From a virus (taxonomy: Duplodnaviria; Caudoviricetes), in IMG/VR virus record IMGVR_UViG_3300037359_000088, positions 1-37,225 of that record: DNA of 37,225 nucleotides; one strand, written 5' to 3'. Positions 12,499-31,213 of the stretch are shown here, piece after piece. Made by a program: the position numbers and the translations under genes. The notes under the pieces are model-generated. The model searched no databases. It was not told where the DNA came from and saw only the letters and a list, made by a program, of their open reading frames with translations. Within the stretch, counting starts at the first letter, position 1, and each line of letters starts with the position of its first letter.

Positions 12499-12520
12499 TA
12501 TGCTGTCTCCTTCCTGGTCC

Positions 12521-12691
12521 TCATGTGACAATGGTCCCGTCGGGGTTCGTGATCGTTATGTCGCCAGGCTTCCAGACAAAGCGCTCAGCGATCCGCTTAG
12601 CCTTTTCGTCGTCGGTGAGCGCGGCCTCCTGCGTGGCTGCAGCCAGCTTATCGGCCCCGATTTGTTCTGGTGTCTTCTTAGGGTTTGCCAT
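12521..12691 (-). CDS. Small ORF 5 of the post-toxin operon (56 aa), candidate immunity peptide
   Basis: MANPKKTPEQIG...RFVWKPGDITITNPDGTIVT*; GGAG RBS; 14-nt overlap with the upstream ORF. Confidence 0.6.
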   Translation of the reverse strand: MANPKKTPEQIGADKLAAATQEAALTDDEKAKRIAERFVWKPGDITITNPDGTIVT

Positions 12692-12830
12692 GGCTCTCCG
12701 TTCCATCCTCGTACTCCGTATATCCGCCATCGAGGCGGTCATGAACGGCTTTGATCTTCGGGAACGCACCTTCGTCCCTCAACTTGGCGTCGCTCGCCTT
12801 CACTGCCTTCGACAACTCTTCGGGGGTCAT
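12678..12830 (-). CDS. Small ORF 4 of the post-toxin operon (50 aa), candidate immunity peptide
   Basis: MTPEELSKAVKASDAKLRDEGAFPKIKAVHDRLDGGYTEYEDGTESHGKP*; ATGA overlap at 12827-12830. Confidence 0.55.
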   Translation of the reverse strand: MTPEELSKAVKASDAKLRDEGAFPKIKAVHDRLDGGYTEYEDGTESHGKP

Positions 12831-12988
12831 GATGCGCTCCAGTCAATGTCGCCGAAATACTTGTCGACCAACCTGGTTACCTCCGCCTGCTGCGTAGCGT
12901 TGGCAGGAGGCTCGTTGCTCGGCGGCGCCGTGGGCAGCGGATCGAGTGAGAACGTGTCAACGATGCAGGTCGCCGGGTCTGGCTTCAT
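12827..12988 (-). CDS. Small ORF 3 of the post-toxin operon (53 aa), candidate immunity peptide
   Basis: MKPDPATCIVDTFSLDPLPTAPPSNEPPANATQQAEVTRLVDKYFGDIDWSAS*; ATGA overlap at 12985-12988. Confidence 0.55.
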   Translation of the reverse strand: MKPDPATCIVDTFSLDPLPTAPPSNEPPANATQQAEVTRLVDKYFGDIDWSAS

Positions 12989-13215
12989 GGTGACACCTTA
13001 CCAGGGCTAGGCGTATTCAGGTCCTTGAGCAACTGTACGAGCGCGGCCGGGAGGTCGGCGGGAGGATCGTTCCAGTAGCCCAGGTTCGCCAAGGTGCCAG
13101 CGTTCTTCGGCTCGTAGAGCCAGTCTTCGTCGGCGTCATATATCGACGCGGTGCCGTCGTCATAGTCGACCAGGTACTGGTCGTCCCCCCTAAAGCCGGT
13201 GACAGTGATAGTCAT
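12985..13215 (-). CDS. Small acidic ORF 2 of the post-toxin operon (76 aa), candidate immunity protein
   Basis: ATGA overlap at 13212-13215; Asp/Tyr/Trp-rich. Confidence 0.65.
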   Translation of the reverse strand: MTITVTGFRGDDQYLVDYDDGTASIYDADEDWLYEPKNAGTLANLGYWNDPPADLPAALVQLLKDLNTPSPGKVSP

Positions 13216-13436
13216 GGCAGCACCTGGACTGTGTCCGGGTCGACGTCGTAGTCGTTTATCGTGTGCTTGTCATAGTCGATGCCAGCCAGCTCGACGTGAA
13301 CGTGACGAATCACGTACTCGCCGGTCTGCCACTCGTCAAGCCCCTCGTAGGTGGGCAGGGCCGGGTCAGGGTAGTCCTCCTTGTTATTCGCCATCGCCTC
13401 ATCGTAGTCAGCAAGGCGCCCTCTGGCCCTCGTCAT
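13212..13436 (-). CDS. Small acidic ORF 1 of the post-toxin operon (74 aa), candidate immunity protein
   Basis: RBS AGGAGG 6 nt before the ATG; follows TGCTATAAT; D/E-rich. Confidence 0.65.
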   Translation of the reverse strand: MTRARGRLADYDEAMANNKEDYPDPALPTYEGLDEWQTGEYVIRHVHVELAGIDYDKHTINDYDVDPDTVQVLP

Positions 13437-13471: not shown

Positions 13472-16400
13472 CTAGCTCGATTCTACCACCTTGACATCGT
13501 TCACCCACCTAATCTGACTGTCATCGCGCCGGTGGTTGCACTTGTTACAGGATGGGAGCAGATTAGCGATCTTGTACCGCCCACCCTGCACGTTCGTGAA
13601 GATCTTATCCTGAGTCAACGACTTCGGGGTAAGGGTGACTCCGCACCAGACGCAAGGACAGGTCGTACCATCGCCAAACTCGGTGAGCAGCTTCGCCGTG
13701 CGACGGTGCCGGTCTGTATTGTTGCCCCGCTTCTCTCCGCCTGCGCGCTTGCTGTGGGCTAGGTCATACGCGTTCGACGCCCGGTCAGCATCCGACGGCA
13801 CCGGGGCGGCGGCGATCTTGTCGGCAGCCTGTTTCGCTATTTGGCTCTGGTCCCATGGAGCGAGCCGGGCCGACGCCTGGATGCGCTCGGGCTCCTTAGG
13901 GGTATTGATGATCGAGTCAAACGGCACCTTCTGGACACTCAGGTTCGGCGCCGGGTCCCACTTCCACTCAATGCCAGCGGCATCGAGCTTGTCCGTGATC
14001 GCCTTGGTCGGCTTGGCGCCGCTAAAGTAAACTTTCTGGATGTCGCTGAGCTGCGGGCGGTCGGCAAACTGGACCTCGACATATTTGCACTGACGGCCAT
14101 CCGAGTAGTCGAGACAATACGGTGGCCGTGGAACGGCCTTGCCGATCGGCACCCTCGGGTCAGCGGTGGCTGCGAGCTTGGCCGGTACACCCAGGAGTCG
14201 ATCGTCCAATGAGTCCCCGCCAGTTACCGTCGCCATGTCAAGCGTCGAATCCTTCATGACCACCTCGACGTCGCCGTACTGACAGGCCCGGAACTCCCGG
14301 TTGGCGTAACTCACGACCGTGTCAGCGTTCAGATTGCCATGACCATCGCCGAGCGAGTAGTACCGAAGCTTAGGCATCCTCGTGGCGTACCGATCAGTAT
14401 CCCAAGGCTTCCGGAGCGCATCACGCGCCTGCGCATCAGCGTATCGCGTTCTCAGGTACTCCCGACTGACCACGTCGATATAATCGCCTTCACCGGCGTT
14501 CATCGACGACGGGGTTATCTCGATGAGCCATCCGTCCGGGTCGGCGCGAATGGCGTCAAGGTCGCCCTTGTTAGTGGGAAGGTAGTCAAGCGCCGATTGC
14601 ACGTCATCCGGGTTGTCAGCGTGCAGGAAGTCACCCGCACCTTTCGGGGCAAGGAAACCGTAAACCGGGCGCTCTGTGGCGGCGGCCGTCTTCGGGATGC
14701 CGAGAGATGACTCCTCACCCTGGAGACGCACGTCGTGATACCACGGCTTCGCCGACATGGAGGTACCGCCTCCGGTCTCGAAGCCGTTCCGGATCTCACC
14801 ATCATCGAGCACCTTCTTGAATGCGGCCGCTTTCATCCGAATCGCTGGGTCGGTCTGAGCCATCCAGGTGGCAAGCGCTTCGCGGGCCTTACCTTGACGT
14901 TCAAAACTCGACTCCGGGTCCTCAGCCGCCCAGTTGTTGCCCAGGCGTTCGCCGGTGGGCTGGAACCCCGATGGGTAGTCAGCAGCCGTAAGGCCACCCC
15001 GATCAGCGTAGGGGATCGGGTGAGGCTGCTCGGCGGTCGGGAAATCGTCGGCCAAGGGAGTACCATCCTTCGCCCATCCGACTGGCGGCAGGGCGGCGTT
15101 GCGTGCGATCGTCTCTTCCAGCGCGCCCGGTACCGCCTGAGACGCTTCCTGAACAGCACTCACGGCCGTTGCTAAGCGATCCTGGCCGACCTTTGCTACC
15201 GTGCCAACCGCTGCAGCCTCAGCTTCGGTTGCTCCGAGGTCACCGACCTTGGCCGCCTCGACTACCGGCGTGATACGGGACGGAGTGAGCAGACTCGGGT
15301 CACAAATCGTGGTTTCGGGGAACTTATTACCAGGTGAGATGTGACTCACGCCTTGGTATCCGGCCTTGTCGAGCGCCGCGTCGAGTGGTTCCTTGTCAAT
15401 CTGGGCCTGGAGCTGGATGCGCCGATACTCGGCGTCACCGCCCGGCAAATCGCGGTTCAGGATATTGATGCCGTCGCCCGCGTGTACTGTAACACTGAGA
15501 ACCTCGTGGTCGGCCTGCCAGGTGGACATGTGTGTGGCATACTCGTTGTCGGCGGCGAGGTACACGCCCGGTCCGCTCTCGCCCATTTTCGACGGCTTCA
15601 GACCATTCTTCAGGATGTCCGGCACGTAGTAGCTGGCCGTCGTGTGATAGTAGGTCTGGTCGCCGGTAAGGCGCGTCGTCCAAGCGTCGGCAGCCATAAC
15701 GGCCTTTTCTGGGGCAACAGGTGGGATCAGGGCCGAGTGGCCGGACACTTTCTCGTAGCCCAGATATGTCAGGTGCACGGTGCCGTCGCCGTCCACCGAC
15801 TCGACCCGGAACACAGACCCGCGGGGGAGCAAAAACTCATCCTCGGCGCTCTTGATTCCGACGTCGTTCATCACCACGCCTGGTGTCCCGGCTGGCAGGT
15901 CGATGACCAGCTTCGTCTTGTCGAACGCGGTGAAGCCCTCAACGTCTCTCGACGTCGACACGTACGCCTTGTCTCGGAACGTCTGGCCTGGCTTCCCCTT
16001 CCAGTTCTTGTGCTCAATCCACCGGACAACCGTCATCGGTTCGTCGGTCGTATCCTTCAGGACAGCCCGGTCCAAGGTTGGCACTTCATCCAGCGCCCGC
16101 CATCCAGGCATCGCCTCCGCATCTTTGGCCAGGGTCAGACCCTTACGCAGCGAACTGTTTATCCGGGTGTAGGCCGCCTGCTGGTAGGCGCCCAGAGCGT
16201 GGGTCTCTTCGGCATCATACTCAGGAGCCAACTTGGCGGCGCCCGCCTCCACAACGGGATTCTTGATTACGACGATGTTCTTCGGATCGAACACGACCAG
16301 GCTCGACCCGGTGCTGATACCGTCGTAACCCTCCTCGGTGGCCAGCTTCTGGACAAGAGCGGGGTCCAGCCTTGGCTCCGTCTGGCTGGCCGAAGCCCAA

Positions 16401-19400
16401 CCCGCGCTGATGGCTTCGGGGCTGGCTCGCGGCTCGTCTTTCCAGCTTCGGGCTACGATATCCCGAGTCGCTTCGGGAGAGGCGACATTGTGCAGGTTGA
16501 CGCGCACCTCCATCAACGCTCCGCCCTTCTTCGGGTCCATGAACTCCTCGTCTCGGGCGAACCCGGCGGCCGTACCTTGCTCCTTGGCAAGGTAAACGCC
16601 GTCTCCGTACATGCGTCCCGTTGTCGCACGCAGTGTCGGATCGAAGCCATTCTCCTCGATCGACTTCTCAGCCTTGAGGGACGTGCCGTGCCAGAACGTA
16701 CCGATCTCGGAGCCCGACGACGTCGACCGCGTCTTGGCAATCCACGCGTCGGCCTCGTCCGAAGTCATAACCGGCTTCCACTCCGGGCCTTCTTCGGCCA
16801 GCTTGGCTGCACCCGTGACCGCCTTCTCCGGTTCCGTGACGGCCTTCACAGTGAGGATCACGGTCGGATTTTCGCCCTCCGAGTGCAAATAGCGATCTAA
16901 GCCAGTGGCCTCGTCCGAAGCTGCCGACGCCCCGGAAAGCACCTCGACATGGGTCACCTCCAGCTTCTGACCTACGAGCCACTCACTCTCGCCCGTACTT
17001 GAGAGGGCTGCGATGTCCAGCGCTCTCGCCCCACCAGTGTCGAGCGTGATCTTCACTCCGCCTTTACCCATGAACAGACGGATGTAATCCTCGTCCGAGC
17101 TGAACGACGCCGCCGTGCCGATGTAGTCGCCGTCAATCACGGCGCCCACCTGCATGTGGGTGAACCTCTCAATCATAGCGAAGTCCGTACCCTCCGCTCC
17201 TTGACCTGGCTGGGTGAACCGCATCCCGCGAAACAGCGGCACGTCATTCCGTGGGGCTTCTTGAACAGTCTTGAACAGGAACTGAGCCGCCTCGTCCGGG
17301 TTCGCCCGCATGGCGGCAATCTTCGCCATGCCTCTACCAGCCCATTCGTCGATACCATCTTTCAACTTCTGAGCGTCCGGATGATCCGCCATCCAGGTTG
17401 CCACCCGGTCGTCAAGCTCCTGTACCTCTTCTGTGCTCCCCCGAGTCAGATGGCTACCCTGCCACTTCAATCGGCTACCCTGCCACTTATCGCTGGAAGC
17501 ACTCAGATCATTCAGAGCCGAGGCTAGATCAGCTGGCGTCTCCTCGGCCAACTTGGCGGCACCGATGGCTGGCGCCTCGGTCAACGCTTTGGCGGGCTTG
17601 AGCTGGACCGTGACAATCGTAGCTGAGTGAGTGAATCCGCCCGCTCTCGGAACATCCCCGGTCCGAACAGACAGAACCTCGAACTGAGAATCACGTGGGA
17701 GCAGGGCCTCAGCTTCGTTCTGGAAATCCATCCTGATCGGAAGCGCCGCCGATCCCTTCGGCAGCCGAACCTCTATGAGCACGCTGTTGGAACCGCTTGC
17801 CCAGTTCGATGAGAATGACCTATCAAGCGAAGTCGAGACGAACCCTTTATCGCTGATGATCTGACCTGGCTTCAGGTCGTGCCAGACGATCTTCTCACCA
17901 CCAACAAGCGTCGTGTCCTCTGCCTGCAGCCCACGCCATGCGGTCAGGTCCTCCGTCGTGTGCGTGTCAGCGATCACCTTGTCCAGTTCAGCGACATTCT
18001 TGTAGAACGCCGGTTGCTGAAGCGTCTCGGTACCAGGCTTCCATTGTGACGGATCTCGGAGCAGCCGGTCGTAAGTCTGCCCAGCCCTGTAGTAGTCATC
18101 AACGGCCTTCTCGGCATCACCGACCTTGGCAGTCATGCCAATCTCAAGACCACGCCCCTCGAACAGCCTATCTATGGCTGCGCGCTGCGCGTCTTTGGCC
18201 GCCCGTCGATCTGCTGCCAGGGAGCCAAGCGGGAGCACCTGCCAATCCTCTGGCTTCGGGAACTCCTCGGGGGCCAGCTTGGCGGCACCGATGGCTGGCA
18301 CCTCGGTCAACGCTTTGGCGTCACGTATCTTCTCCAGCCGGGCGGTCGTATCGTCAAACGCCTGGCTCCACGGCACGACGGCAGGCGGCCAGCCTCTGCT
18401 AAACGACCCGGCCGCCTCGAAGTCTGGGCGAAGTGGCTCGATAGCGTCGATCATCCCCTGGACGTCAACAGCCGAAATCTTCGGCGTGGCCATAGCCAAG
18501 TCAAACAAAGGATCGGCCTTGTCGGGCCTCAAATCCTCAAACGTCCTGCCGTGGTCGATCCCGACCAGGGTTTTCCCGTCATCGACCAGCAACACATTGG
18601 CAACGTTCCGGTCGCCGTTCGCCACCGCATAATCGAAAACCCTGAGCCGCTGCCCGTCGATCGAGTTCCATGCCCGCGTCGTGTTCTGCGGCTTCGGCCT
18701 ACCAGTGACCGGGTCGCGCTTGCGTGGCGTGCTATCGACAAACCTCTCCGCCACCGTAGTATCGTCAACACGCACCACCGCCGGAACCGGGGCGCCCATG
18801 GCTAGACCAAGTTTCGAGGCGAGCACTTCCTGATCGGTGGTGTTCGGGAGATCACCGCCGTAGCTCACCTTCGTGACGCCGGTCGAACCGTCGGCGAACC
18901 GGACACGATAAACGTTGCCCTCAGCTCCAGAGCCGACGACCTCCCCTCTCACAATAGAACCATCTATGGCCGCACTCAGTGAGTCGACATCCTTCCAGTC
19001 TTCGGCTAGCTTGGCAGCTCCAACCAACGGCTCGGTGACCACTACGAGACTCTTCGGGTCCAGAACGACCATTATCTTGTCTATGCCCATGATCGCGTCG
19101 TGGCCGTCAGCCCTAGCCAACTCAGTCACCCTGGCAGCGTATGGTGCCTCGCCGAGCTTCAGATTTTCCTTGATGGCAGCACACATGTACTTCTTCGTCT
19201 GATCGAACGTAGTCGGGTTCTGAACATTGACCCGGATCTTCAGCACTTCACCCGGGACTTCCTTGCGAGCACCAAGACCCGCCCGACCTGGCGTCACATA
19301 TTCGGCGTAGTCCCTGGCCTGCCGTTCGCCCGGCGTGACGTACACTCCGCCACCAAAAGCCTGAACTCCGACCCCAGTCCCACCCTTAGACAAATCGAAC

Positions 19401-22400: not shown

Positions 22401-25400
22401 TCGTCCATGACATTGAGGTACTCGTCCTTCCGTCCCGCCGCCGAGAGACGCGCCTCGTACTTGTGCGAGAACTGGGACCGGAGTGTAGCAACGTCAGCCT
22501 TCGTCACCGCCGAAGCGGCGCCAGCCCTCGTGTCCTCGATGGCCTTGTCGAGTGGATCGACGACAGTGACAGCGGGCTCGGCAGGCTTCAGTGGGGGCAG
22601 GATCGAGTCCGTCGCCCTGACGGGCTTCAGAACCTCTTCTGGTTCTTTGCCTGCCACGCGCCAGTGGAACGCCTCGCCGTACAACTGGGCCGCCTTGTCC
22701 TTGGTAGCTCCTCCTGTCAGGTGCCACTCAGCCCAGCACTCGGCGTACGCCTCTTCAGGGTTCGTCTGCCCATAGGCACTCAGGCCGGTCAACTGGGCCG
22801 CTTTGGACCGCGCAGCATTGGCGTCGATCCATTCCGTGCTGAATGGCTTCAGCTTCGCCAGATCCACCGGGCTAAGGTAGTCGGGAACATTGGCCTTAAT
22901 GTTGGCCATCAGATCGTCGTACACCTGGCGGAAAACTTGGCCCTGGTGGAACAAGACCGCCGGAGTCTGGGCTGTCTCAACCCCGTCCCTCCAGCCCGAA
23001 ATATAGGACGCGTGACCAAACTCGTGGAAGATGTTGTACCGGATCTCGGTTACGTCATTCCGGGCAGGCATGTGCCAGTCCCCGGCATGTGCACCCTGCC
23101 ACGCCTTCTTCTCGTTGAGGTGGATAACGCGAGCTTCATCGCCCCTCATCATCACCCAACCCTGGGCTTCTATCTTGCCCGTCGCCGTCTGCATGATGGC
23201 GTCCTCGCGGATCTCAACCTCGATCGACGGCATCTTCTTGTCGGCAACGCCATAAACGTAGGAGATCTTGTCGCTGTACTGGTCCACGCAGTCGGCCAGA
23301 GCATCGAGGGCCGCCTGGGCGTCTCTCGCCGACGGATAAGGGTGGACACCTGAAGCGATGTGCAGGATGAGCTGTCGACCCTCTTCGTCCTGCATGGCGA
23401 ATACGGTCTTGCTGACCGCGCTCTGGTCGGGCCAGGGATCACCGTTGGGCTTCTTCGGCATGACCAGCGGGCGCATGTCGGGACTGGTAATCCCGCCTAG
23501 TATCGGTGGCTCCTTGGCCAGCTGGGCAGCGCCAGTGGTGACGCCGGGTGAAATCAGCTTCCCGCTCTCATCCTCATAACCCATGTACGTCAGATGAGCG
23601 CTGCTATCGCCGACCGAGTCCACCCGAAACACCGAATCGCGTGGGAGCAGAAACTCGTCCTCTCTGTCCAGCGTGGTCTGAGACACCAACCATTTCCCGC
23701 CGAGGGCGTCCTTCAATACCGCACCCGGAGTACCGACCGGCAAGTCGATCGTCAAACCTGTATTACCGAACAGGCTGTACGTCCCCGGGGACGAAACCGC
23801 CCTTGCAAAATCGGGATCTCTCGACGTCGACACGTACGCCTTATCCCGGAAATCCTGACCCACCTTCATCTTCTTGAGCACCGACAGGTCGACGCATCTC
23901 GAAACAGTCATCGGTTCGTCGGTCGTATCCTTCAGGACGGCTCGATCCAAGACAGCCACATCCGGCTTCTTTCCGTCGCGAAGCTCCTGGTTAATCTGGA
24001 AGTAGCTCTCCGGATCGTTCGAACTAGAGGCATAACCTGCCAGGGCCTTAAGCTCATCGTCGCCATACTCTGGAGCCAGCTTGGCCGCGCCAGAGACCGA
24101 AACGGATGGCTCCACGGTGACATACCAGATGCTGTTCTTGTACTCGGCGCTCGTAACCACCATTGACTGCGAGGCCAGCAGAACTTCCTTTTCCTCGGGA
24201 TAGGTGGACCATTCGGCCACGTCACGACCGACTACTTGCCCGTTAGTGGTGAAAATCACCTTGTTGACACCGGCGCCGTAAGCGGCAACCCTGTCCCTGT
24301 CGGCGGTGAAAGACGTCATCGGCGCCGTCAGGTCGACGTGTGCGCCTACGACCGGAGCGTCGCCGAACATCCTCTCAAAGCCATCGTCGTCGAGACCGAG
24401 CGAGCGGTAGACGGGCCCGTCATAAGTGCCACCGCGAACCCAGGCGGCGGCAGCGTCCATCTGCTTAGGCTTGATAGGAACGCCCCAGTCGCCACCCTTG
24501 GCCGTGTAGTGCTTGATGCCAGCTATCGCATCGGCGCCCGGTCCCCCGGCAACCGACACGACTTCTGGCTTCGGAACCGATGGCTTCGGAACCGATGGCT
24601 TCGGGACGGCGGGCTTTGCCTCAGGAGGTGAAACGACCGTCCCATCGCCCCGGTCGTAGCCCGTGTATGTCGCATGAACATTGCCGTCCGCATCCACCGA
24701 GTCAATCCTGAACGTCGAGCCATGTGGGAGTAGCAGTTCCTGCTCGCTCTCGCGGGACATCTCTTCCGGAACGTCTCGGTATTTCTGGTCCAAGGTGGGC
24801 ATCCACGCTCCCGGCGTCCCGGTCGGCAAGTCGATGATCATCTTGTAGTCGTGCTCCGGATTTCCCCACACAAAGTCGAGGTCTCTCGATGTCGAGACGT
24901 ACGCCTTGTCTGTGAACGTCTGGCCAGCCTCCAACGCGATCCGGTTGCCGTGAGCGTCGTTAAAGCCCATCCACCGGAGAACCGTCACCGGCTCGGTAGT
25001 CGTGTTCTTCGCTATAGCGCTGTCCAGGGGCGCTAAAGTCCGAGCCGACGTCCAGGCCGAGGACTCGCCCTCGCGTAGCGCCTCATTGATGTGCTGAAAA
25101 GTCACATCCTGGTAGTCCGACAGAGCGTAAACCTCGTCTTGAGTCCAGGCCCTATCGGTAACTGGAGCCAGCTTGGCGGTGCTCGCCACGGGCACCGCGG
25201 GCTTGGCGAGCTTCTCTGGCACAAAGGGCGTGATCCGTTCGTCGGGCTTCAGCACGTCGGCCAGCTTGGCCACCTCTGGCTCGGCCGCCTCCTCGACCGG
25301 CTTGATGCTGGCTGCCATCCTATCGAGCGTGTTCTTGTCGAAGTACCTGTCAATCACTCCAGGAATAACCAGGTGACCCTTGTCCTTGCCATAGATCTTC

Positions 25401-28400
25401 GCTCCAGCGGCACGCTGGACTGCCGTGGCAGCCGTGCTCCGTTCCAGATCTTCCTGCGCCGCCCGTACCGCGTCCGGGTGAGCGTTGGCTATGCCCTGGA
25501 GCACCCGGTTCTGAACGTCCGAGTCCTCCCCAGCTTTCAAGTCGTACGTGCGGCCGACCGTGACGATGTTCTCCTCATCGAACACGACGATCACGTTGTC
25601 GGCGGTCAGGGAGTCGTAACCGAGTGCCCGCGCCTTCGCCGTCACATTCTCGGCGTATTTCAACTGCTCGGCTCCGGTGCCGAACCAGCTAAAGCCGGGA
25701 CCCATCTCCTTCACTGTCTCGCTCATCAACCGCTGCGTGACCCCGGCCGGGGCCGGGTTCTTGATGTTGAGCCGCAGCTCCAGCATGTCGGTACCATAAG
25801 ACTGGACGTCCTCGGGCAGCTCTCCCGTGTAGACGCCTACCCCCATCGAAGCGCCCGTCGTCGACTTGCGCGACAGATCGAACCCGGACTCCCTAACACC
25901 CCTTGCCCCGGCCTTCGTCGTCGCATGGAACACAGGGGTCTGCCGAACCGAGTCGGCTGCCCATGCGTCGGCCTCGTCCGGAGTCATAACCGGCTTCCAC
26001 TCCGGGGTTTCCTCGGCCAGCTTAGCGGCACCCGCGACCGGCTCGGCTGCTACGGAGAACGCCTCAGCTGACCGCTCCTTGAAGTTGTCCTCGGCGTCCT
26101 TGAGTTTAGCGAGGATCGTGTCGTATTCTGAACTCCTGCCTGCCGCCGCAAAGTCTGTCTCGTACTGCTCGAAGTCCTCCCTCATATCCGTGATCGCGTT
26201 CACGGTGGGCTTTCCGCTGGCGCCCCACCCGTGCGTAAGGTTGTATGGGAGGTTCCTGTTTATCTTCTCGATCTCTTTGTCGAGGTCCTCCACCTTCGAC
26301 GGAAGCCACTTCGGTAGCGGCGCCTCTTCAGCCAGCTTGAGTGGCTCGGCGGCTTCTTCGGTCAACCGGACCGTGACCTGCTGGACTCCGCTCTTGTCAA
26401 CCTTGATCGAAAGCACCTCAAAGGCTTGGCCTCGTGGAAACAGGACTTCGTTTTCTTCACCACCCAGTGCCAAAGCGGTAGAACCCTTCGAGACCTGGAT
26501 CGTGACCAGTGCCGGATGCTCGGAGCCAAGGTACTCGAACGCCTCTGCGTTCTTCTTGACCAGCGAGGTAGAAACAAACCCGTCATCCCGGAACGTAGCT
26601 CCGACCTTCAGATTGCTGAGATCGAGATCCATTCCTCGAAACAGGGTCACGTCCTCCTTAGTGCTGCTGTCCGCTATCGCCTTGTCAAGCGGAGCGCACA
26701 CCTTGAGTAGGGCGGTTCGTTCCTTGCGCGTACCAACCCTCAGGATCTCGTTCCAATCACTCCCACCTGGCCCGCTGACCGCAATACCACTTTCATCGGC
26801 CGTCACCTGACCGGCCTCGCCCCTGTACCCCTCAACAGCCCGCTCGGTCTTCGCGTCAAACTCCGCTTCGTTCCGAGGCCCAGAGAACGTACCGGTAAAC
26901 AGGCGGGACATCTCTTCCTGAGTAGGGCCTTCTTCGGCCAGCTTGGCTGCACCCGTGACCGCTTCTCTTGTGACCTTGCCATCCACCACTGCCTGGAAAC
27001 GGGCCATCATTTCCTTGTAGGCATCTTCGCCGTAGGTGTTGCCCATCCGTACGGCCACGAAATCCGGCTCCAGCGCCTTGACCTTGACGATCATCGTCCG
27101 GACATCCTCAGCCGAAATGTCCGGCGTAGCGGCGAAGATGGCTTTGATCGTCCCGGCGTCGACAGACGGGACGTTATCGCCAGAGACGAAGACATTCCCG
27201 TACCGTGCGCCCGCGTCGCCGTGACTCCAGCAAATGCCGTGGTCGATACCAACCGGCCCATCTTTGGTCAGTATCCAGTTCGACGGGTTCCGGTCCGAGT
27301 TGCCGATGACGTAGTCAAACAGGGCGAGCTTCTGACCTCCAGAGGATGCTATCGCCTCTTCCCTGTCCATCCGGGTTTCTATGCCACCACCTGAGATGGC
27401 TGAGGCGAAGCTGCGCCAAAACTTCGGATCAGAGCCGTTCGTGCCCTCTACCAGACGCATAACCACACTGTCAAGGTTCTCGGGCGGCGGTGTCTCAACA
27501 ACCCTACCTGTGAATCTTGCAAGCCCGCCCGGGAAGTTATCGTCTATAGCCTCGACAACGTGAGCATCTGAGGTAGCACGGGATACGGGAACCCCGAACG
27601 TATCCGACAGCCAGTCCCGCGCTTCATTGAGCTGTGCATCGGTCAGTGCGACCTGCCCGGGTCGGACCACCACCGCTGCCCGGATGACGGCCGGTACCGG
27701 GGCGCCCATAGCCACGCCTACCTCAGAAGCAAGTACCTCGCTGTCGATCTTTTCGTCGTGATAGCCCTTCGGGCCAAAGAAGTCTTTGATGACTCCCGTC
27801 GAGCCGTCACCGAACTTGATCTCGGTGACCTTGCCCTCAACACCGTGACCCAGCTCCGTTCCGCGACTCACGATTCCGGAGTCAAGTGACACCTCCAGGG
27901 CGCTACGGTCGCTGATGTCCTCGGCGAGTTGGGCGGCGGCCACGAACGGCTTACCCGCGATTACCGCCTCCGTCTTGAGCTTCTCATCTCGGATGAAGCC
28001 GAGATACGCGTTCACGTGGACGTCGACGTTCGGGATCTTGGCGACGCTGTCCATCATCTGCTGGATGTCGGCAGCCGAGATATCGGGTAGGACCTTGGCG
28101 ACAGACTCTACGGCATCGGCAGCACCTGCCGGTAAGAACGGTGTGTAGCAAGTCTCGCCGTATGAGAATGAGAACCCGTGGTCGATGCCAACCGGACCAT
28201 CCGTCGTCATGATCCAGTTCGACGGGTTGCGGTCAGTGTTGCCGATGACGTAGTCGAACAGTCCAAGCCGCTGGCCCGCCGGACTCTTCAGCAGGTCTTC
28301 CTCAGCCTTGTCGGCTACGGCGTGGAAGTCTACCCTCCAGTCCCCTCCGCCCTTCGCCAGTTGTAGTCGGTGCCAGGCATTCCCATCCGGACCCTCGACG

Positions 28401-31213
28401 AACCGCTCGGCCAGCGTGTGATTGTCAATCTTCACCACAGCCGCGACCTTTACTCCCATGGCGACTCCAACCTCGGAAGCCTCCACTTCCTTATCGAGGT
28501 TGAACTCTGTAGCGCTATAACCAGTTCTGTACGATCCCAGGTAGGTCTTTACAACGCCGGTCGTCCCGTCCGCAAAGGTGGCCTCCTTCACGGTGCCCTG
28601 GACGCCGCTGCCAACCTCATAGCCTTCCTTGTACGGCCCGGCGGCCACCGAGTCCTTCAGGGCGTCGATGTCATAGATGTCGACCTTGGCCAGCTGAGCC
28701 TCGGCGTGATACGCGGCGTCGATCCGGTCGACCGTAGCCGACATATCGGCGTAGACAGCGTCCGCTTCGGTGCCGTCCCAGCCGAACAACGCGGCCATCT
28801 TTGTAGACAGCTCGTCCGTGCCTCCGAGGACGTAGTTCGCGTGCGTCTCACCGATCGCCTCGATAAGACTTCCGCCTCCGTACTGGGACAGGTCGGTCGC
28901 CTTGCGCAGGTCTACCCACGCCGCAGCAGCCTGCTCCTGAAGATCGGCCAGCACGGGAAGGGAGTCCAGGGGGCCGCCGATATCTGCGGCCAACCTCGAC
29001 AGATGGGCGTCGTCATAGAACTTCCAACCTTCACCCGGCTCCCCGATCAGCTCCGCCAACAGGTCGCTTGCTGCGATGTTGGACTTGTCGACGGCGATCG
29101 ACATCTGGAACTGGAACTGGTGACCTGTCTCGTGAGCCATCAGGTAGCGGCCCTCACCAAGGGCGGAGACCGTAGCGTCGGGCGACGTGAGCGCAGCCTG
29201 CGGCATGAACCAATCCGGATGAGACTGGTTGTAGCCGTACCAATCTCTAGTCTGGCTCGCCCGGCCTCCAACCTCGATCGTCCTGGGGTTGTCGGACATG
29301 ACACAGGCCAGGTCCTTTTTCGCCATGGCGTTCTCGCCACCGAAGACGACCGTTGTGCCGGGAGCAGCAAACTCATTGGCACCCCGCATGTAGTCGAGAA
29401 CTAGCGGGTCGTCGGCCGTCCAGCCCGATCCCGCCCTGATCTCGCCCTTGATGCGGCCAAGGTCGACATTGATCGAGCCACCCGGGCCGGGCCGCTTAAG
29501 TGGTGTACCCCAGCGCTTCGGCACCTTCACCTCGTGAGCATCCGCCTCGCTCATGTGTGTGCCGGGACGCCGCACCGTATCGAGGGGCCGAGCGGTAGCC
29601 TTCGCGGCTTCCCCTGCTCCTGTGGCTTCCTTCTCAACTCCCTCGGTGGTGACCTGTTCCGCTACTGCTGACGGCGGCGGTGTGTAGACGCCTCCAGGCC
29701 CCATATTTTCTAGTCCAGTAGTCGGAACATCCGGATTCACTTCCGGCTCTTCGCCTTCATCAGCAGTCGAGTCCGTCGTTAGGGGCGCGGATGACGTGAT
29801 CACGTCGCACCGGCAGCTCGGATGTCCAGGTGGGGCGGTGTCACCGCTCGGAAAGTCGTCCTCAAGCGGGATCGGCCCAGACTCGACGTTCTGCATACAG
29901 TAGTCGCACGGCATCCCCTCTGTGGCGATCCACGCTTTGGCGGTCGAGCCCGCGGCTTCCCCAACTGCCAAGGTTGACGAGCAGGAAGCGGAGCAGGACT
30001 CCGTGCGGGCGATCGTCTCGGCACGGCTACCCGACGCCTGAGTGAACACCTTCTGGACGGCGTCCTGCATATCGCGAGTACCACCACCGGCCTGCTGCGT
30101 CTTCAGTATCGCGTCCTGAATCTGCCGGTACGTCGTGTCCTCACACCCGACGATCCGGTTAAGCTGGGCGTCGTACGCGGCCTTCAGTCCCGGGTCAGCC
30201 TTTCCAAAGGTGATCTGGAGCCGATTCGCCTCGTCACCGGCAAAGTCGTTCATCATCCCGTTCAGCCAGTTCCCGGCGTCATCGGCCAGCTTCTGGCTCA
30301 TCTCGTCCGTCGGGAAGATAGCCTCGCCAACCGCCTCGGCCTGGGACTGGCCCGCCTGACCGGCCATCTGCATGAAGTTGGCGACGTTCTGTGCCTGGTT
30401 CTGGGCGGCCTGTTGCTGCGTCTCTCCCTTCGTGGGGAGGTTCACCGGCGAGAAGTTTTCGAGCAGCCGCTTCAGCGTATCGTTAAACTTCTCATTCGGA
30501 TTGGCCAGAGCCGCCACCTGGGCATTAGCCGACGTCTGGGCAGCAACAGCCGACTGGACCTGCGTCCAGGCCGCCTCCTGTTCATCGGGTGTAGTGGCAG
30601 CTACCTGAGCGGAGCGAGCGGCGATGATCTTCTGGTTAGCTTTTCCGTAATCAGCTAGAGCTTTCTGAGCTTCCTGGCGGGCCTCTTCTTCGGCGGCTTC
30701 CCTACGAACCTCAGCTTCCGTCCGGGCAACTTCTGCCTCTTGCGCCGCCCTTACCGCCGCCTCGCGCTTTGTTATCTCCTCTTCTTCTTCAGTGGCTCCA
30801 AGGGCGACGGCGGTGATCTCGTCACCGGGCCCGGCGAAATACTGGGTGGCGGCCTGTTGCGGCGTCTCTCCCTGCTGGGCCTGCCCCGCCTTAGGCTTGG
30901 GCTTATCGGCCTTGACCTCGGCCACCGAAAGCCCTTTGGTCCCAGTGGCCAGGTGGTGCAGGTTGGCCAGGACGACCCGCTGCTCATACGCAAAGTGAGC
31001 GCGCATGTAGTGCTTGATCGTCTCCTCCCACACGCCGATCTTATGACGACGCCGGGCGATGTAAGTGAGCAGATCCTTCTCTGTGAGTGGCTGCCCGTAG
31101 AGGGTGTGGGAGGTGAACTTAGGTGCAGCCTTCTCTCCGCGCCGGAACCAGGGAGTTACCGGAAACGGGATCAGAACCGAAAGCGCTCTGTGGGGGGCCG
31201 TGATCATCGACAC
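13472..31213 (-). CDS. Giant (5913 aa) MuF/SPP1 gp7-like head morphogenesis protein fused to about 22 toxin/effector domains (polyvalent protein)
   Basis: GTG abuts the portal stop; located between portal and protease; MuF motif RAETIARTE...KAWIA...CDYC...PPGHPSCRC; repeated ART, kinase, HExxH and HNH motifs. Confidence 0.9.
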   Translation of the reverse strand: MSMITAPHRALSVLIPFPVTPWFRRGEKAAPKFTSHTLYGQPLTEKDLLTYIARRRHKIGVWEETIKHYMRAHFAYEQRVVLANLHHLATGTKGLSVAEVKADKPKPKAGQAQQGETPQQAATQYFAGPGDEITAVALGATEEEEEITKREAAVRAAQEAEVARTEAEVRREAAEEEARQEAQKALADYGKANQKIIAARSAQVAATTPDEQEAAWTQVQSAVAAQTSANAQVAALANPNEKFNDTLKRLLENFSPVNLPTKGETQQQAAQNQAQNVANFMQMAGQAGQSQAEAVGEAIFPTDEMSQKLADDAGNWLNGMMNDFAGDEANRLQITFGKADPGLKAAYDAQLNRIVGCEDTTYRQIQDAILKTQQAGGGTRDMQDAVQKVFTQASGSRAETIARTESCSASCSSTLAVGEAAGSTAKAWIATEGMPCDYCMQNVESGPIPLEDDFPSGDTAPPGHPSCRCDVITSSAPLTTDSTADEGEEPEVNPDVPTTGLENMGPGGVYTPPPSAVAEQVTTEGVEKEATGAGEAAKATARPLDTVRRPGTHMSEADAHEVKVPKRWGTPLKRPGPGGSINVDLGRIKGEIRAGSGWTADDPLVLDYMRGANEFAAPGTTVVFGGENAMAKKDLACVMSDNPRTIEVGGRASQTRDWYGYNQSHPDWFMPQAALTSPDATVSALGEGRYLMAHETGHQFQFQMSIAVDKSNIAASDLLAELIGEPGEGWKFYDDAHLSRLAADIGGPLDSLPVLADLQEQAAAAWVDLRKATDLSQYGGGSLIEAIGETHANYVLGGTDELSTKMAALFGWDGTEADAVYADMSATVDRIDAAYHAEAQLAKVDIYDIDALKDSVAAGPYKEGYEVGSGVQGTVKEATFADGTTGVVKTYLGSYRTGYSATEFNLDKEVEASEVGVAMGVKVAAVVKIDNHTLAERFVEGPDGNAWHRLQLAKGGGDWRVDFHAVADKAEEDLLKSPAGQRLGLFDYVIGNTDRNPSNWIMTTDGPVGIDHGFSFSYGETCYTPFLPAGAADAVESVAKVLPDISAADIQQMMDSVAKIPNVDVHVNAYLGFIRDEKLKTEAVIAGKPFVAAAQLAEDISDRSALEVSLDSGIVSRGTELGHGVEGKVTEIKFGDGSTGVIKDFFGPKGYHDEKIDSEVLASEVGVAMGAPVPAVIRAAVVVRPGQVALTDAQLNEARDWLSDTFGVPVSRATSDAHVVEAIDDNFPGGLARFTGRVVETPPPENLDSVVMRLVEGTNGSDPKFWRSFASAISGGGIETRMDREEAIASSGGQKLALFDYVIGNSDRNPSNWILTKDGPVGIDHGICWSHGDAGARYGNVFVSGDNVPSVDAGTIKAIFAATPDISAEDVRTMIVKVKALEPDFVAVRMGNTYGEDAYKEMMARFQAVVDGKVTREAVTGAAKLAEEGPTQEEMSRLFTGTFSGPRNEAEFDAKTERAVEGYRGEAGQVTADESGIAVSGPGGSDWNEILRVGTRKERTALLKVCAPLDKAIADSSTKEDVTLFRGMDLDLSNLKVGATFRDDGFVSTSLVKKNAEAFEYLGSEHPALVTIQVSKGSTALALGGEENEVLFPRGQAFEVLSIKVDKSGVQQVTVRLTEEAAEPLKLAEEAPLPKWLPSKVEDLDKEIEKINRNLPYNLTHGWGASGKPTVNAITDMREDFEQYETDFAAAGRSSEYDTILAKLKDAEDNFKERSAEAFSVAAEPVAGAAKLAEETPEWKPVMTPDEADAWAADSVRQTPVFHATTKAGARGVRESGFDLSRKSTTGASMGVGVYTGELPEDVQSYGTDMLELRLNIKNPAPAGVTQRLMSETVKEMGPGFSWFGTGAEQLKYAENVTAKARALGYDSLTADNVIVVFDEENIVTVGRTYDLKAGEDSDVQNRVLQGIANAHPDAVRAAQEDLERSTAATAVQRAAGAKIYGKDKGHLVIPGVIDRYFDKNTLDRMAASIKPVEEAAEPEVAKLADVLKPDERITPFVPEKLAKPAVPVASTAKLAPVTDRAWTQDEVYALSDYQDVTFQHINEALREGESSAWTSARTLAPLDSAIAKNTTTEPVTVLRWMGFNDAHGNRIALEAGQTFTDKAYVSTSRDLDFVWGNPEHDYKMIIDLPTGTPGAWMPTLDQKYRDVPEEMSRESEQELLLPHGSTFRIDSVDADGNVHATYTGYDRGDGTVVSPPEAKPAVPKPSVPKPSVPKPEVVSVAGGPGADAIAGIKHYTAKGGDWGVPIKPKQMDAAAAWVRGGTYDGPVYRSLGLDDDGFERMFGDAPVVGAHVDLTAPMTSFTADRDRVAAYGAGVNKVIFTTNGQVVGRDVAEWSTYPEEKEVLLASQSMVVTSAEYKNSIWYVTVEPSVSVSGAAKLAPEYGDDELKALAGYASSSNDPESYFQINQELRDGKKPDVAVLDRAVLKDTTDEPMTVSRCVDLSVLKKMKVGQDFRDKAYVSTSRDPDFARAVSSPGTYSLFGNTGLTIDLPVGTPGAVLKDALGGKWLVSQTTLDREDEFLLPRDSVFRVDSVGDSSAHLTYMGYEDESGKLISPGVTTGAAQLAKEPPILGGITSPDMRPLVMPKKPNGDPWPDQSAVSKTVFAMQDEEGRQLILHIASGVHPYPSARDAQAALDALADCVDQYSDKISYVYGVADKKMPSIEVEIREDAIMQTATGKIEAQGWVMMRGDEARVIHLNEKKAWQGAHAGDWHMPARNDVTEIRYNIFHEFGHASYISGWRDGVETAQTPAVLFHQGQVFRQVYDDLMANIKANVPDYLSPVDLAKLKPFSTEWIDANAARSKAAQLTGLSAYGQTNPEEAYAECWAEWHLTGGATKDKAAQLYGEAFHWRVAGKEPEEVLKPVRATDSILPPLKPAEPAVTVVDPLDKAIEDTRAGAASAVTKADVATLRSQFSHKYEARLSAAGRKDEYLNVMDDLRDLEKTKPLVAEVAKAEAAKVATAAEIENWVDVNAWGVAKGIKIDSNLEAHISVDTMKTVTSVIDKLDAKYPGLSDDLTIDYKPGEIGQAASVGSIDANGRPNIMGAALHPTTRSVLYISRNLTDEQLADAIRGGTNAARSVEDAYIHEMGHVMQNSTAWMRQIPGQGLDMAQAVAPIDVNLERSLIRQAMQEAGYADKGGARVRKLISEDISGYAADKNDLEFDAETFMLFNRPGGISDLSAEAQQRLRTYAAALDRLTGRTAKAEVTEAAKVATAADFTAVKLPGADKVIEGYSDFGVDWNENLRAWHWAPGRSDPTVDIPIAKKMDAIIAANTAKADVTVYRGMDWDLSKLKVDDTFMDKGFVSTTWDKGSAQSFTGINVHAGETPHPVLLTIEVPAGSHVLPIGAMGVAEEGEVLLPRMSKFTVLSNTVDDKGVRQVSLKLVEYGPGEGPARVVTGAAWQGAAKLASDYDDAPALQKALDVGAFKVGSEIGSGAEGTVTEVTFADGTTGVQKVFTPTRGEESETEVLASKVGLAIGAPVPAALRSAPNAIVERLVAGSTFQGLPMDVTDAARASEAGQRLKVFDWAVGNNDRSVTNIMLGTDGKIVGIDHGLVFRNPGTVSLVVKRQAFEETPDISAADVQKMLDDIKPLKGDFAKAGTVSRYQHLETPLPHYAYDEASYGQIYDEMTSRLEQLRDVKLGVVPVTGAAKLAPEVDIHDAVALQSALDAGEITRGDMIGDGAQADVYDCTFADGTSGVLKGFTSSAEGDTQARDEMLASKIGAVMGAPVPAVLLIPGMPRTVAERFVKGTVGTLVEDHDREVAFASAQGQRLGLFDWTVGNADRNEGNWILTADGPVGIDHGIIWQPDSGVNSPFISGLKFEKYEEVGLDDVVKATKDISPDEVHAMIVKLQALEPAFGADVPFLDDSVSRLMEVEDAKREALRATTGAAKLAPPEWKPVMTSDEADAWASDSVVKDLMYHGTATPGTAASIRDTGFDLSKGGTGVGVQAFGGGVYVTPGERQARDYAEYVTPGRAGLGARKEVPGEVLKIRVNVQNPTTFDQTKKYMCAAIKENLKLGEAPYAARVTELARADGHDAIMGIDKIMVVLDPKSLVVVTEPLVGAAKLAEDWKDVDSLSAAIDGSIVRGEVVGSGAEGNVYRVRFADGSTGVTKVSYGGDLPNTTDQEVLASKLGLAMGAPVPAVVRVDDTTVAERFVDSTPRKRDPVTGRPKPQNTTRAWNSIDGQRLRVFDYAVANGDRNVANVLLVDDGKTLVGIDHGRTFEDLRPDKADPLFDLAMATPKISAVDVQGMIDAIEPLRPDFEAAGSFSRGWPPAVVPWSQAFDDTTARLEKIRDAKALTEVPAIGAAKLAPEEFPKPEDWQVLPLGSLAADRRAAKDAQRAAIDRLFEGRGLEIGMTAKVGDAEKAVDDYYRAGQTYDRLLRDPSQWKPGTETLQQPAFYKNVAELDKVIADTHTTEDLTAWRGLQAEDTTLVGGEKIVWHDLKPGQIISDKGFVSTSLDRSFSSNWASGSNSVLIEVRLPKGSAALPIRMDFQNEAEALLPRDSQFEVLSVRTGDVPRAGGFTHSATIVTVQLKPAKALTEAPAIGAAKLAEETPADLASALNDLSASSDKWQGSRLKWQGSHLTRGSTEEVQELDDRVATWMADHPDAQKLKDGIDEWAGRGMAKIAAMRANPDEAAQFLFKTVQEAPRNDVPLFRGMRFTQPGQGAEGTDFAMIERFTHMQVGAVIDGDYIGTAASFSSDEDYIRLFMGKGGVKITLDTGGARALDIAALSSTGESEWLVGQKLEVTHVEVLSGASAASDEATGLDRYLHSEGENPTVILTVKAVTEPEKAVTGAAKLAEEGPEWKPVMTSDEADAWIAKTRSTSSGSEIGTFWHGTSLKAEKSIEENGFDPTLRATTGRMYGDGVYLAKEQGTAAGFARDEEFMDPKKGGALMEVRVNLHNVASPEATRDIVARSWKDEPRASPEAISAGWASASQTEPRLDPALVQKLATEEGYDGISTGSSLVVFDPKNIVVIKNPVVEAGAAKLAPEYDAEETHALGAYQQAAYTRINSSLRKGLTLAKDAEAMPGWRALDEVPTLDRAVLKDTTDEPMTVVRWIEHKNWKGKPGQTFRDKAYVSTSRDVEGFTAFDKTKLVIDLPAGTPGVVMNDVGIKSAEDEFLLPRGSVFRVESVDGDGTVHLTYLGYEKVSGHSALIPPVAPEKAVMAADAWTTRLTGDQTYYHTTASYYVPDILKNGLKPSKMGESGPGVYLAADNEYATHMSTWQADHEVLSVTVHAGDGINILNRDLPGGDAEYRRIQLQAQIDKEPLDAALDKAGYQGVSHISPGNKFPETTICDPSLLTPSRITPVVEAAKVGDLGATEAEAAAVGTVAKVGQDRLATAVSAVQEASQAVPGALEETIARNAALPPVGWAKDGTPLADDFPTAEQPHPIPYADRGGLTAADYPSGFQPTGERLGNNWAAEDPESSFERQGKAREALATWMAQTDPAIRMKAAAFKKVLDDGEIRNGFETGGGTSMSAKPWYHDVRLQGEESSLGIPKTAAATERPVYGFLAPKGAGDFLHADNPDDVQSALDYLPTNKGDLDAIRADPDGWLIEITPSSMNAGEGDYIDVVSREYLRTRYADAQARDALRKPWDTDRYATRMPKLRYYSLGDGHGNLNADTVVSYANREFRACQYGDVEVVMKDSTLDMATVTGGDSLDDRLLGVPAKLAATADPRVPIGKAVPRPPYCLDYSDGRQCKYVEVQFADRPQLSDIQKVYFSGAKPTKAITDKLDAAGIEWKWDPAPNLSVQKVPFDSIINTPKEPERIQASARLAPWDQSQIAKQAADKIAAAPVPSDADRASNAYDLAHSKRAGGEKRGNNTDRHRRTAKLLTEFGDGTTCPCVWCGVTLTPKSLTQDKIFTNVQGGRYKIANLLPSCNKCNHRRDDSQIRWVNDVKVVESS
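13500..13770 (-). other. Domain: C-terminal Zn-binding HNH-like nuclease
   Basis: CPCVWCG...LTQDKI....GGRY..ANLLPSCNKCN; the usual DH dyad appears as DK. Confidence 0.7.
13955..14900 (-). other. Domain: DUF3626-like (possible ART-fold) domain with a long insertion
   Basis: VLDDGEIRNGFETG, R...E..SLG, RPVYGFL, QYGDV, TVTGGDS, YVEVQ, L.DI..V; family recognised from memory of the motif order. Confidence 0.55.
15285..15690 (-). other. Domain: His-type ART-like domain 4
   Basis: YYHTT...ILKNGL, GPGVYLA, GYQGV, PETTICDP. Confidence 0.7.
15755..16220 (-). other. Domain: VIP2-like ART 8
   Basis: ALGAY..INSSLR, VVRW, DKAYVSTS, EDEFLLPR. Confidence 0.85.
16265..16787 (-). other. Domain: His-type ART-like domain 3 (ART-PolyVal-like)
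   Basis: FWHGTS..GF, YGDGVYLA, AGFA, GYDGI, LVVFDP. Confidence 0.75.
16845..17530 (-). other. Domain: compact R-S-E ART 7
   Basis: LFRG, ASFS......F, DIAALSSTGESEWL. Confidence 0.75.
17600..18260 (-). other. Domain: VIP2-like ART 6
   Basis: YDRLLR, AWRG, DKGFVSTS, EAEALLPR. Confidence 0.85.
18320..19000 (-). other. Domain: HipA/PI3-PI4K-like kinase 5
   Basis: GSGAEG, GVTK, EVLAS, FDYAVANGDRNVAN, GIDHG. Confidence 0.85.
19040..19526 (-). other. Domain: His-type ART-like domain 2 (ART-PolyVal-like)
   Basis: MYHGT..GF, GGGVY, RDYA, NVQNP, GHDAI, MVVLDP. Confidence 0.75.
19570..20245 (-). other. Domain: HipA/PI3-PI4K-like kinase 4
   Basis: GDGAQA, GVLK, EMLAS, FDWTVGNADRNEGNW, GIDHG. Confidence 0.85.
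20285..20980 (-). other. Domain: HipA/PI3-PI4K-like kinase 3
   Basis: GSGAEG, GVQK, EVLAS, FDWAVGNNDRSVTN, GIDHG. Confidence 0.85.
21060..21550 (-). other. Domain: VIP2-like ART 5
   Basis: WNENLR, VYRG, DKGFVSTT, EGEVLLPR. Confidence 0.85.
21610..22315 (-). other. Domain: zincin metallopeptidase 3
   Basis: YIHEMGH ... ISGYA....LEFDAE. Confidence 0.8.
22660..23480 (-). other. Domain: zincin metallopeptidase 2
   Basis: NIFHEFGH ... LSAYGQTNPEEAYAE. Confidence 0.8.
23575..24070 (-). other. Domain: VIP2-like ART 4
   Basis: ALAGY..INQELR, TVSRC, DKAYVSTS, EDEFLLPR. Confidence 0.85.
24110..24535 (-). other. Domain: compact R-S-E ART 3
   Basis: VYRS, TSFT..R.VA..Y, DVAEWSTYPEEKEVL. Confidence 0.75.
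24566..24604. repeat. 15-bp tandem repeat encoding a PKPSV linker
   Basis: tggcttcggaaccga x2 plus a partial third copy. Confidence 0.9.
24655..25150 (-). other. Domain: VIP2-like ART 2
   Basis: ALSDY..INEALR, TVLRW, DKAYVSTS, EQELLLPH. Confidence 0.85.
25560..26006 (-). other. Domain: His-type ART-like domain 1 (ART-PolyVal-like)
   Basis: VFHATT..GF, GVGVY, SYG, NIKNP, GYDSL, IVVFD. Confidence 0.7.
26360..26900 (-). other. Domain: VIP2-like R-S-E ADP-ribosyltransferase 1
   Basis: TLFRG, GFVSTS, ENEVLFPR. Confidence 0.85.
26970..27915 (-). other. Domain: HipA/PI3-PI4K-like kinase 2 (with insertion)
   Basis: GHGVEG, GVIK, EVLAS, FDYVIGNSDRNPSNW, GIDHG. Confidence 0.85.
27960..28670 (-). 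other. Domain: HipA/PI3-PI4K-like kinase 1
   Basis: GSGVQG, GVVK, EVEAS, FDYVIGNTDRNPSNW, GIDHG. Confidence 0.85.
28740..29470 (-). other. Domain: zincin metallopeptidase 1
   Basis: YLMAHETGH ... LSQYG...IEAIGE. Confidence 0.75.
29795..30330 (-). other. Domain: MuF (Phage_Mu_F) head morphogenesis domain
   Basis: RAETIARTE, KAWIATEG..CDYC..N, F.SG...PPGHPSCRC. Confidence 0.9.

Follow-up and report, generated by a model that had tools for sequence, protein, structure and literature searches.

Phage polyvalent proteins, in which unrelated enzymes such as zincin metallopeptidases (MPTases), ADP-ribosyltransferases (ARTs) and kinases are joined to a MuF domain in a chain encoded within the portal-terminase module, have been described with 2-15 domains per chain, along with fusions of 2H to the portal and a 12,242-aa plasmid example, and their processing into single units by the MPTase has been proposed (Iyer, Burroughs, Anand, de Souza, Aravind, 2017, PMC5512222; here and below, statements on published work refer to the accessible parts of each source). 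MuF-ART and portal-2H fusions have also been published (PMC9503650). In the MuF polymorphic toxins, the muf gene directly follows the portal gene, the protein carries a C-terminal extension with one toxin domain, and a short ORF (open reading frame) lies downstream (Jamet et al., 2017, PMC5576092). Here we describe a protein that shares features with both groups, encoded in a 37,225-base virus record (Caudoviricetes; IMG/VR record IMGVR_UViG_3300037359_000088; the window, analyzed at its full length). A single minus-strand ORF (31213->13472, 17.7 kb, 48% of the record) encodes 5,913 aa (~635 kDa) without an internal stop, and the window contains no N. The best reading of this sequence is a MuF-anchored polyvalent protein that is likely packaged, likely cut at a short repeated junction word, and ejected.

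The giant protein combines at least two unrelated enzymatic domains, is encoded among the virion genes of a portal-terminase phage, and contains the hub domains MuF, zincin MPTase and ART. It stands at the extreme of a class already published and offers a processing signal that can be tested. It differs from the polyvalent proteins of PMC5512222, as far as these are described there, in having 22 enzymatic domains in addition to MuF (compared with 2-15), mostly as a result of paralogue expansion, in the PI3/4K-HipA-like type of its kinases and in the repeated junction word; from the MuF polymorphic toxins it differs in a 5,400-aa extension with 22 domains rather than one. Given the plasmid example, its length alone is not a record. 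The features of the giant protein are as follows.

13472..31213, minus strand, MuF-anchored polyvalent protein, 5,913 aa, start GTG at 31213 or ATG at 31207
29780..31126, minus strand, MuF region, aa 30-478 (Pfam core aa 364-472), PF04233, closest relative P0002
28700..29536, minus strand, zincin 1, HETGH (aa 694), from the motif; weak structure model with the lethal-factor catalytic centre as top match (Z 5.5)
26984..28678, minus strand, kinases 1 and 2, PI3/4K-HipA-like, from profile and motifs
26354..26776, minus strand, R-S-E ART 1, PF03496 E 1.6e-14
25289..26311, minus strand, helical module 1, His-type ART 1 and helical module 2, from motifs and alignment
23564..25156, minus strand, R-S-E ARTs 2, 3 and 4 (ART 3 from motif and alignment alone)
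21605..23446, minus strand, zincin 2 (HEFGH), helical module 3 and zincin 3 (HEMGH), from motifs, and from Atlas for zincin 2
21044..21550, minus strand, R-S-E ART 5, PF03496 E 9.8e-10
18314..20983, minus strand, kinase 3, kinase 4, His-type ART 2 and kinase 5, from profile and motifs
16838..18256, minus strand, R-S-E ARTs 6 and 7 (ART 7 from motif and alignment alone)
15278..16792, minus strand, His-type ART 3, R-S-E ART 8 and His-type ART 4, from profile and motifs
13904..15061, minus strand, predicted SopF/DarT-like ART-fold domain (domain 21), from a structure model
13499..13816, minus strand, HNH domain with the first His replaced (QDK), HNH_5 E 4e-7, last in the chain
13859..29608, minus strand, 23 junction words (A/L)-(K/Q/R)-(L/V/A)-(A/G), 11 of them exact GAAKLA (e.g. 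26936-26947, 20252-20263, 16796-16807)

The protein was split at linkers into 24 segments, of which 23 were scanned and one, a 31-aa linker, was left out. After MuF there are 3 zincins, 5 kinases, 8 R-S-E ARTs, 4 His-type ARTs, the SopF/DarT-like ART fold and the HNH domain, that is, 13 ART-fold domains altogether. An earlier reading made from the sequence alone (the sequence-only reading) had proposed one 17.7-kb ORF between portal and prohead protease, with MuF followed by 22 domains in a given order and an unusually high copy number per enzyme class. The ORF is as proposed, with 5,913 codons, the portal gene adjoining and the protease gene 2.7 kb downstream; its extent was right and its strand, which had been left unsaid, is minus. 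All 22 domains occur in exactly the proposed order with their core motifs kept, and the 13 ART folds, 5 kinases and a domain count above 2-15 agree with the copy-number claim. The ART, kinase and zincin calls are borne out by motifs throughout, and the Pfam cut-offs are passed for only part of them.

The MuF match to PF04233 (E 2e-6) scores 29.0 bits, just under the cut-off of 29.6, and has 3,900 relatives; the closest, P0002, is a 776-aa protein (54% identity) with MuF and two ARTs and without the junction word. The R, S-T-S and E-x-E motifs are present in all eight R-S-E ARTs, with a TSFT/ASFS variant in ARTs 3 and 7; six pass PF03496, and the profile matches Vip2 (E 2e-15). All five kinases match PI3_PI4_kinase, two of them above the cut-off, and retain the Gly loop, K, E, D-R-x-x-x-N and IDHG. 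Three of the four His-type ARTs match PARP/ART-PolyVal (one above the cut-off; PARP10 E 7e-6), and HxT and GVY motifs are present in all four. The last-strand Glu is visible only in His-type ART 4 in the four-sequence alignment, and the other three may be mono-ART or hydrolase types. The zincins all keep HExxH and the distal S-x-Y..E..E, although none of the three matches Pfam, including PF18818; zincin 2 has an Atlas value of 0.95 to a cluster named for Pro-Pro endopeptidase and falls with ATLF and M90. The structure model of zincin 1 (pLDDT 43.5, Z 5.5) was set aside as proof of fold.

Domain 21 had been read as DUF3626-like. The domain is there, with four homologues at 39-46% identity, but it has no Pfam match and the PF12294 profile matches none of the five alignment members. 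Instead, it models (pLDDT 64.7) as an ART fold nearest to SopF (Z 10.5, root-mean-square deviation 4.1 A over 189 residues, 17% identity), with matches also to Tpt1 and DarT. Thus, its predicted fold is that of the clade of Salmonella SopF and DarT (PDB 7dn9, 7omv), in a phage context; DUF3626 itself has been placed in SopF (PMC6682159). The QDK form of the HNH domain also occurs in the HNH modules of Gordonia phages GMA6 and Chidiebere. The usual form at this position is D-H. Three helical modules of 70-90 aa lie between the domains (26048-26311, 25289-25546 and 22358-22561), the first and third being alike (E 1e-7). Proteins are the substrates of R-S-E ARTs and HipA-like kinases, and nucleic acids may be those of DarT-like folds; the 13 ART-fold domains and five kinases are candidate anti-defence enzymes against actinobacterial hosts.

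In trees of the ARTs and kinases (weak support), related copies are found far apart along the chain (ARTs 2, 4 and 8). Internal duplication and shuffling of cassettes, each comprising a word and a domain, together with the acquisition of cassettes found by themselves in other phages, appears to be the best explanation for the growth of the array.

The most informative feature for the mechanism, which the sequence-only reading missed (as it did the single in-frame stop after the portal gene), is the junction word. GAAKLA occurs 11 times in the giant protein, compared with a mean of 0.007 and a maximum of 1 in 300 shuffles, and A[KQR][LV][AG] occurs 25 times where 3.3 are expected. When the 11 exact copies are compared, synonymous differences appear in 158 of 330 codon pairs, and outside the word identity falls to background within two residues; hence the word is kept as a peptide. 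The copies are also related by descent because their third-position divergence (0.41) is below that of the gene as a whole or random positions (0.61), and a few joints share 29-42 nt exactly. The central residue is K in 19 of the 23 words, R in one and Q in three. A further PAKLA at aa 5678 was rejected as a joint because it lies inside a conserved core. A search of IMG/VR for the DNA pattern of GAAKLA-x-E returned 72 loci, three of which belong to a second assembly of this phage; the 12 long ORFs inspected have one chance copy each. Within this one chain, a single candidate cut site is repeated about 20 times, and its K-to-Q variants and the joints that lack the word serve as natural controls.

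The features flanking the giant ORF in the head module are as follows.

31214..33421, minus strand, portal protein, 735 aa, with C-terminal 2H phosphoesterase (PF04860 E 8e-47; 2H families E 4.5e-8)
12193..13436, minus strand, four small ORFs (74, 76, 82 and 112 aa) after the giant ORF, the 74-aa ORF first; candidate immunity or accessory genes
8249..10813, minus strand, S78 prohead protease with fused scaffold-like region, 854 aa (PF04586 E 1.4e-9)
6457..7908, minus strand, HK97-type major capsid protein; all 58 distinct relatives retain K175-D176

On the scenario that we favour, the giant protein is very probably loaded into the prohead at the portal through its MuF domain, at roughly one or two copies, the number reported for SPP1 gp7. 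The chain would then, with somewhat better than even prospects if either candidate protease is counted, be cut at the junction word; the cutter may, more tentatively, be the S78 head-maturation protease, acting after the Lys of the word. The separate enzymes would be ejected with the DNA and would ADP-ribosylate, phosphorylate and cut host targets, acting early in infection on host defence and the expression machinery. Packaging, co-ejection and host takeover are inferred here from the MuF/portal context and published precedent. The gene order portal-MuF-protease-capsid fits this scenario, and one copy would fill 1.2% or less of a head with an inner radius of at least 25 nm. Among the precedents, T4 Alt is a virion-borne ART for host takeover (PMC5512222), and the head proteases of T4 (gp21) and SPN3US (gp245) cut packaged proteins at the short motif AXE, removing propeptides (PMC10052503). 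By contrast, some 20 internal cuts in the giant protein would free separate enzymes, and the protease motif is different. In HK97 the N-terminal polypeptide is removed (PMC9024508).

Several observations weigh against this scenario. Q replaces K in three of the 23 otherwise intact words. With the variants LKLA and AAKA included, the word is found at 21 of 25 domain boundaries (four further matches fall inside domains), but the word was already known when the boundaries were drawn, and these two variants were added to the original pattern, so the proportion is partly circular, and four boundaries lack the word in any case. The word is absent from the portal, protease/scaffold and capsid proteins of this phage (no matches; best profile score 1.9); it shares Lys with the capsid/scaffold site, with different flanks. 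Words lacking Lys (GFAS, GMSS, AGMA, RLSSG) occur in relatives with S78 domains that share 76-91% identity with one another. Finally, despite the presence of a zincin, the virion RNA polymerase of N4 is packaged without being cut (PMC5512222).

The last case exemplifies an alternative in which the whole chain is packaged and ejected intact, the word being a binding or threading signal (for the capsid wall, portal or a chaperone) or a duplicated linker. ArdC and TraC1, like the N4 polymerase, travel uncut (PMC5512222), the 251-kDa DarB of P1 is a head protein (PMC9024508), and the low third-position divergence and the long identical stretches at a few joints are what shared ancestry of a linker would leave. 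However, six residues are conserved before unrelated domains while the flanks have diverged, which points to selection on the peptide and excludes a relic, albeit not a binding role, and genome-private words common to separate genes fit a co-evolving reader. On this evidence we regard an uncut chain as rather unlikely.

The relatives show that repeated words of this kind are not confined to the giant protein. Three capsid relatives (G001-G003) encode several giants of 1,754-3,472 aa between the protease and capsid genes: four in G001, with GMxS 7-17 times each, four in G002, with [SGA]TRS 5-11 times, and three seen in G003, with GMxS 5-16 times. Between G001 (C1 6303-50933) and G002 (C1 6454-52591), the four giants (1.7-3.5 thousand aa) keep the same order and the word is switched wholesale from GMxS to STRS, with S78 domains 89% identical; this is the best natural pair for finding the reader of the word. 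Among 23 non-redundant ORFs of at least 1,200 aa located near portal relatives, 8 carry a strong word (log10 p at or below -6.5), namely RLSSG, KLSSG, GFAS, AGM[AS], GxMSS or SGxM, and 15 carry none of this strength; among 53 ORFs of at least 800 aa located near capsid relatives, 5 carry one. Seven S78 domains from phages with differing words show the mutual identity mentioned above and are 44-47% identical to that of the window phage. What all words of the family share is a hydrophobic residue followed by a small residue or Arg (KLA, RLS, KLS, GFA, GMS, GMR, STR).

This variability bears on a second candidate reader, one or more of the zincins of the giant protein itself, which would cut between K/Q and the hydrophobic L/V, perhaps not until ejection has taken place, leaving S78 to the structural Lys sites. 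The three zincins have an intact HExxH and distal Glu, zincin 2 resembles the ATLF and Pro-Pro endopeptidase clusters, and the words change down to their hydrophobic-then-small/Arg core while S78 barely changes; the Q variants, the word-free structural proteins and the Lys-free words of relatives are all better explained by a zincin. Many zincins prefer a hydrophobic P1' residue. Processing by an MPTase is, moreover, what Iyer and coauthors proposed in 2017 (PMC5512222). Against this, HExxH is lacking in the part seen of several word-bearing giants (L372, L217, L354, the first ORF of L390 and two of the four G001 giants), a profile of the three zincins finds no homologues in the uncultured relatives, and some mechanism would have to keep the zincins latent in the producing cell. 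Extended to the family, this alternative amounts to proteolysis with two codes, conserved S78 acting on Lys sites and zincins on a fast-changing, genome-private word, with about 20 toxins released after entry from one MuF-tethered polyprotein, in the manner of RNA virus polyproteins; in its full form it adds leaky readthrough of the portal TGA, which would attach the chain to roughly one of every twelve portal subunits. We consider zincin cutting, the family-wide extension and the joint claim with readthrough each unlikely, and slightly favour the head protease over the zincins as the cutter because 19 of 23 words have Lys at their centre, the cargo leaders of the family use Lys, and prohead activation supplies the timing.

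The use of Lys at structural joints is apparent in the invariant K175-D176 of the capsid protein and in [WI][DE]xK[AES] at 45 of 62 fused portal-MuF joints. The protease of the window phage is flanked on both sides by K-R, in place of the K-S/A/D of relatives. The HK97 protease reportedly cuts after Lys103. In phages Chidiebere, GMA6 and Cantare, which like the window phage encode 2H, VIP2-like ART (two of the three), HNH and zincin modules between portal and protease, the ART, HNH and zincin modules open with a Lys site followed by a common leader; internal joints show this arrangement too, and large residues come after the Lys. The leader, Lys followed by V-R-x-V-R-(D/T)...G-x-P-x-G, is seen in L408 1428-5431, L409 5360-9501 and L410 5874-8996, all from cultured Gordonia/Brevibacterium phages, and free-standing homologues of the SopF-like cassette likewise start with a Lys site and leader. 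The combination of Lys and leader is a candidate, and testable, capsid-targeting tag. Unlike the giant protein, which lacks it, the cargo of these three phages consists of separate, tagged genes of at most about 1,040 aa, and in GMA6 and Cantare portal and MuF are fused, in contrast to the window phage. An apparent depletion of head-protease-type Lys sites in the giant cargo (37 compared with 50.9, p 0.017) depends on one ad hoc pattern, the plain pattern giving p 0.10, and is not relied on.

Searches for proteins of similar construction gave no homologue among 1,037 candidates of 3,252-10,348 aa (a weak search), no zincin 3 in 4,824 longer proteins and no match of the kinase profile in 182 metagenome contigs. 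No MuF-bearing ORF exceeds 1,136 aa among 189 in the fetched loci or 1,291 aa among the best 150 representatives; many of the ORFs compared end at contig ends, and the giant protein is not to be taken as a length record. In the literature searched, most subscription papers being outside the search, we found neither this architecture nor junction words described; the term 'linker' does not occur in the main text of PMC5512222, the supplementary architecture files of which may hold comparable MuF proteins. Of the novelty suggested by the sequence-only reading, the domain count above 2-15 stands, whereas the class, the MuF-ART fusion and the processing were already proposed in 2017/2022. The locus bears on that proposed processing and on the role of MuF cargo, and, with 17.7 kb spent on one predicted delivered protein, on the cargo size that a MuF anchor can carry.

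The portal gene (33421-31214) ends at the base directly before the giant ORF, in the same frame and separated from it by a single TGA (CGA-TGA-GTG, 31214-31216). Of 106 distinct portal relatives, 21 are truncated by contig ends, and 64 have portal and MuF fused; among non-fused relatives, the next ORF is in frame in 3 of 27, the window phage being one of the three. Readthrough of the portal into the giant ORF nevertheless appears improbable, and a coupled restart is favoured because an ATG lies 6 nt past the portal stop and is followed by a leader like that of P0002, which has its own. There is no enrichment of slip sites at the 62 fused joints (2.28 compared with 2.21 per kb). A split between portal and MuF would spare the twelve subunits a load of 635 kDa. 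In L378, an in-frame TAG (3424-3426) lies in the MuF half of an otherwise fused portal-MuF, either a nonsense change or an assembly error. The 2H phosphoesterase at the portal C-terminus (about 31330-31660, portal aa 590-699) is a candidate counter-signalling enzyme of a kind already published in such fusions.

The four small ORFs after the giant gene raise the alternative that the protein is a MuF polymorphic toxin directed mainly against competing bacteria or superinfecting phages, with immunity genes downstream, rather than an early host-takeover kit. ORFs shorter than 150 aa follow 89.4% of MuF toxins (PMC5576092). However, 22 domains are too many for four small genes to match, none of these genes has a family match or homologue, and the scanned ORFs of the 37-kb fragment, which include no integrase, give no sign of a temperate lifestyle; this alternative therefore seems distinctly improbable.

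Given the repetitive structure of the ORF, we also considered that it might be an assembly chimera of cassettes from several strains, a condition under which the sequence-only reading would have failed. A second assembly, L081, covers 22322-37225, about half of the giant ORF, with 1 mismatch in 14,904 nt; all four runs not marked as source fill 30 of 30 bins of 12900-32000 without an indel, and four further runs cover 16000-20500 without indels (eight runs in all). The longest exact repeat within the ORF is 42 nt, domain paralogues are 28-51% identical in BLAST segments, and the G+C content at third codon positions is 0.62-0.80 in all segments longer than 100 codons. The listed contig pieces and L081 bridge the whole ORF except 16745-16823 and 19484-19515, both at short repeats (38-42 nt), so that among these pieces two joints are unbridged outside the source assembly, and single contigs hint at strains without a cassette. 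The only other path through the 42-nt repeat, which is present in two copies, would require a separate 2.7-kb circle with the sequencing depth of the genome itself. A chimera is accordingly scarcely credible. As to in-frame length variants, two runs have a net 51-nt loss at 16876-16930, and single short-sided contigs would drop His-type ART 4 (15259-15715, net 432 nt) or zincin 2 (22593-23425, 831 nt), a weak hint of cassette polymorphism among strains.

On the minus strand, the gene order is two WhiB-like genes and RusA, portal-2H, the giant gene, six small ORFs in the 2.7-kb gap, the S78 protease and the capsid protein. An actinobacterial host appears likely because the nearest cultured capsid proteins are those of Brevibacterium phage Cantare and Gordonia phages (46-48% identity) and WhiB is encoded. 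At least half of the sampled sequence words are present in 19 of 24 listed runs, all labelled peat or permafrost, with three marked as possible source. No close prophage was found in the genome contigs searched, no tRNA, and no promoter or same-strand terminator at 12000-13600 by a simple scan; PADLOC gave one weak match among 19 proteins. The protease (8249-10813) has a stretch resembling a zinc finger (CxxCxGxG), one rich in His and numerous Lys sites in its scaffold region. On the opposite strand to the head module, a 961-aa protein (117-3002, plus strand; no PHROG match) has N-terminal beta-propeller-like repeats and long Thr/Ala/Ser/Asp repeats. L081 extends the genome past the window, and upstream of the head module its positions 1-3096 hold a terminase-like ORF, apparently with two inteins, as read from the sequence.

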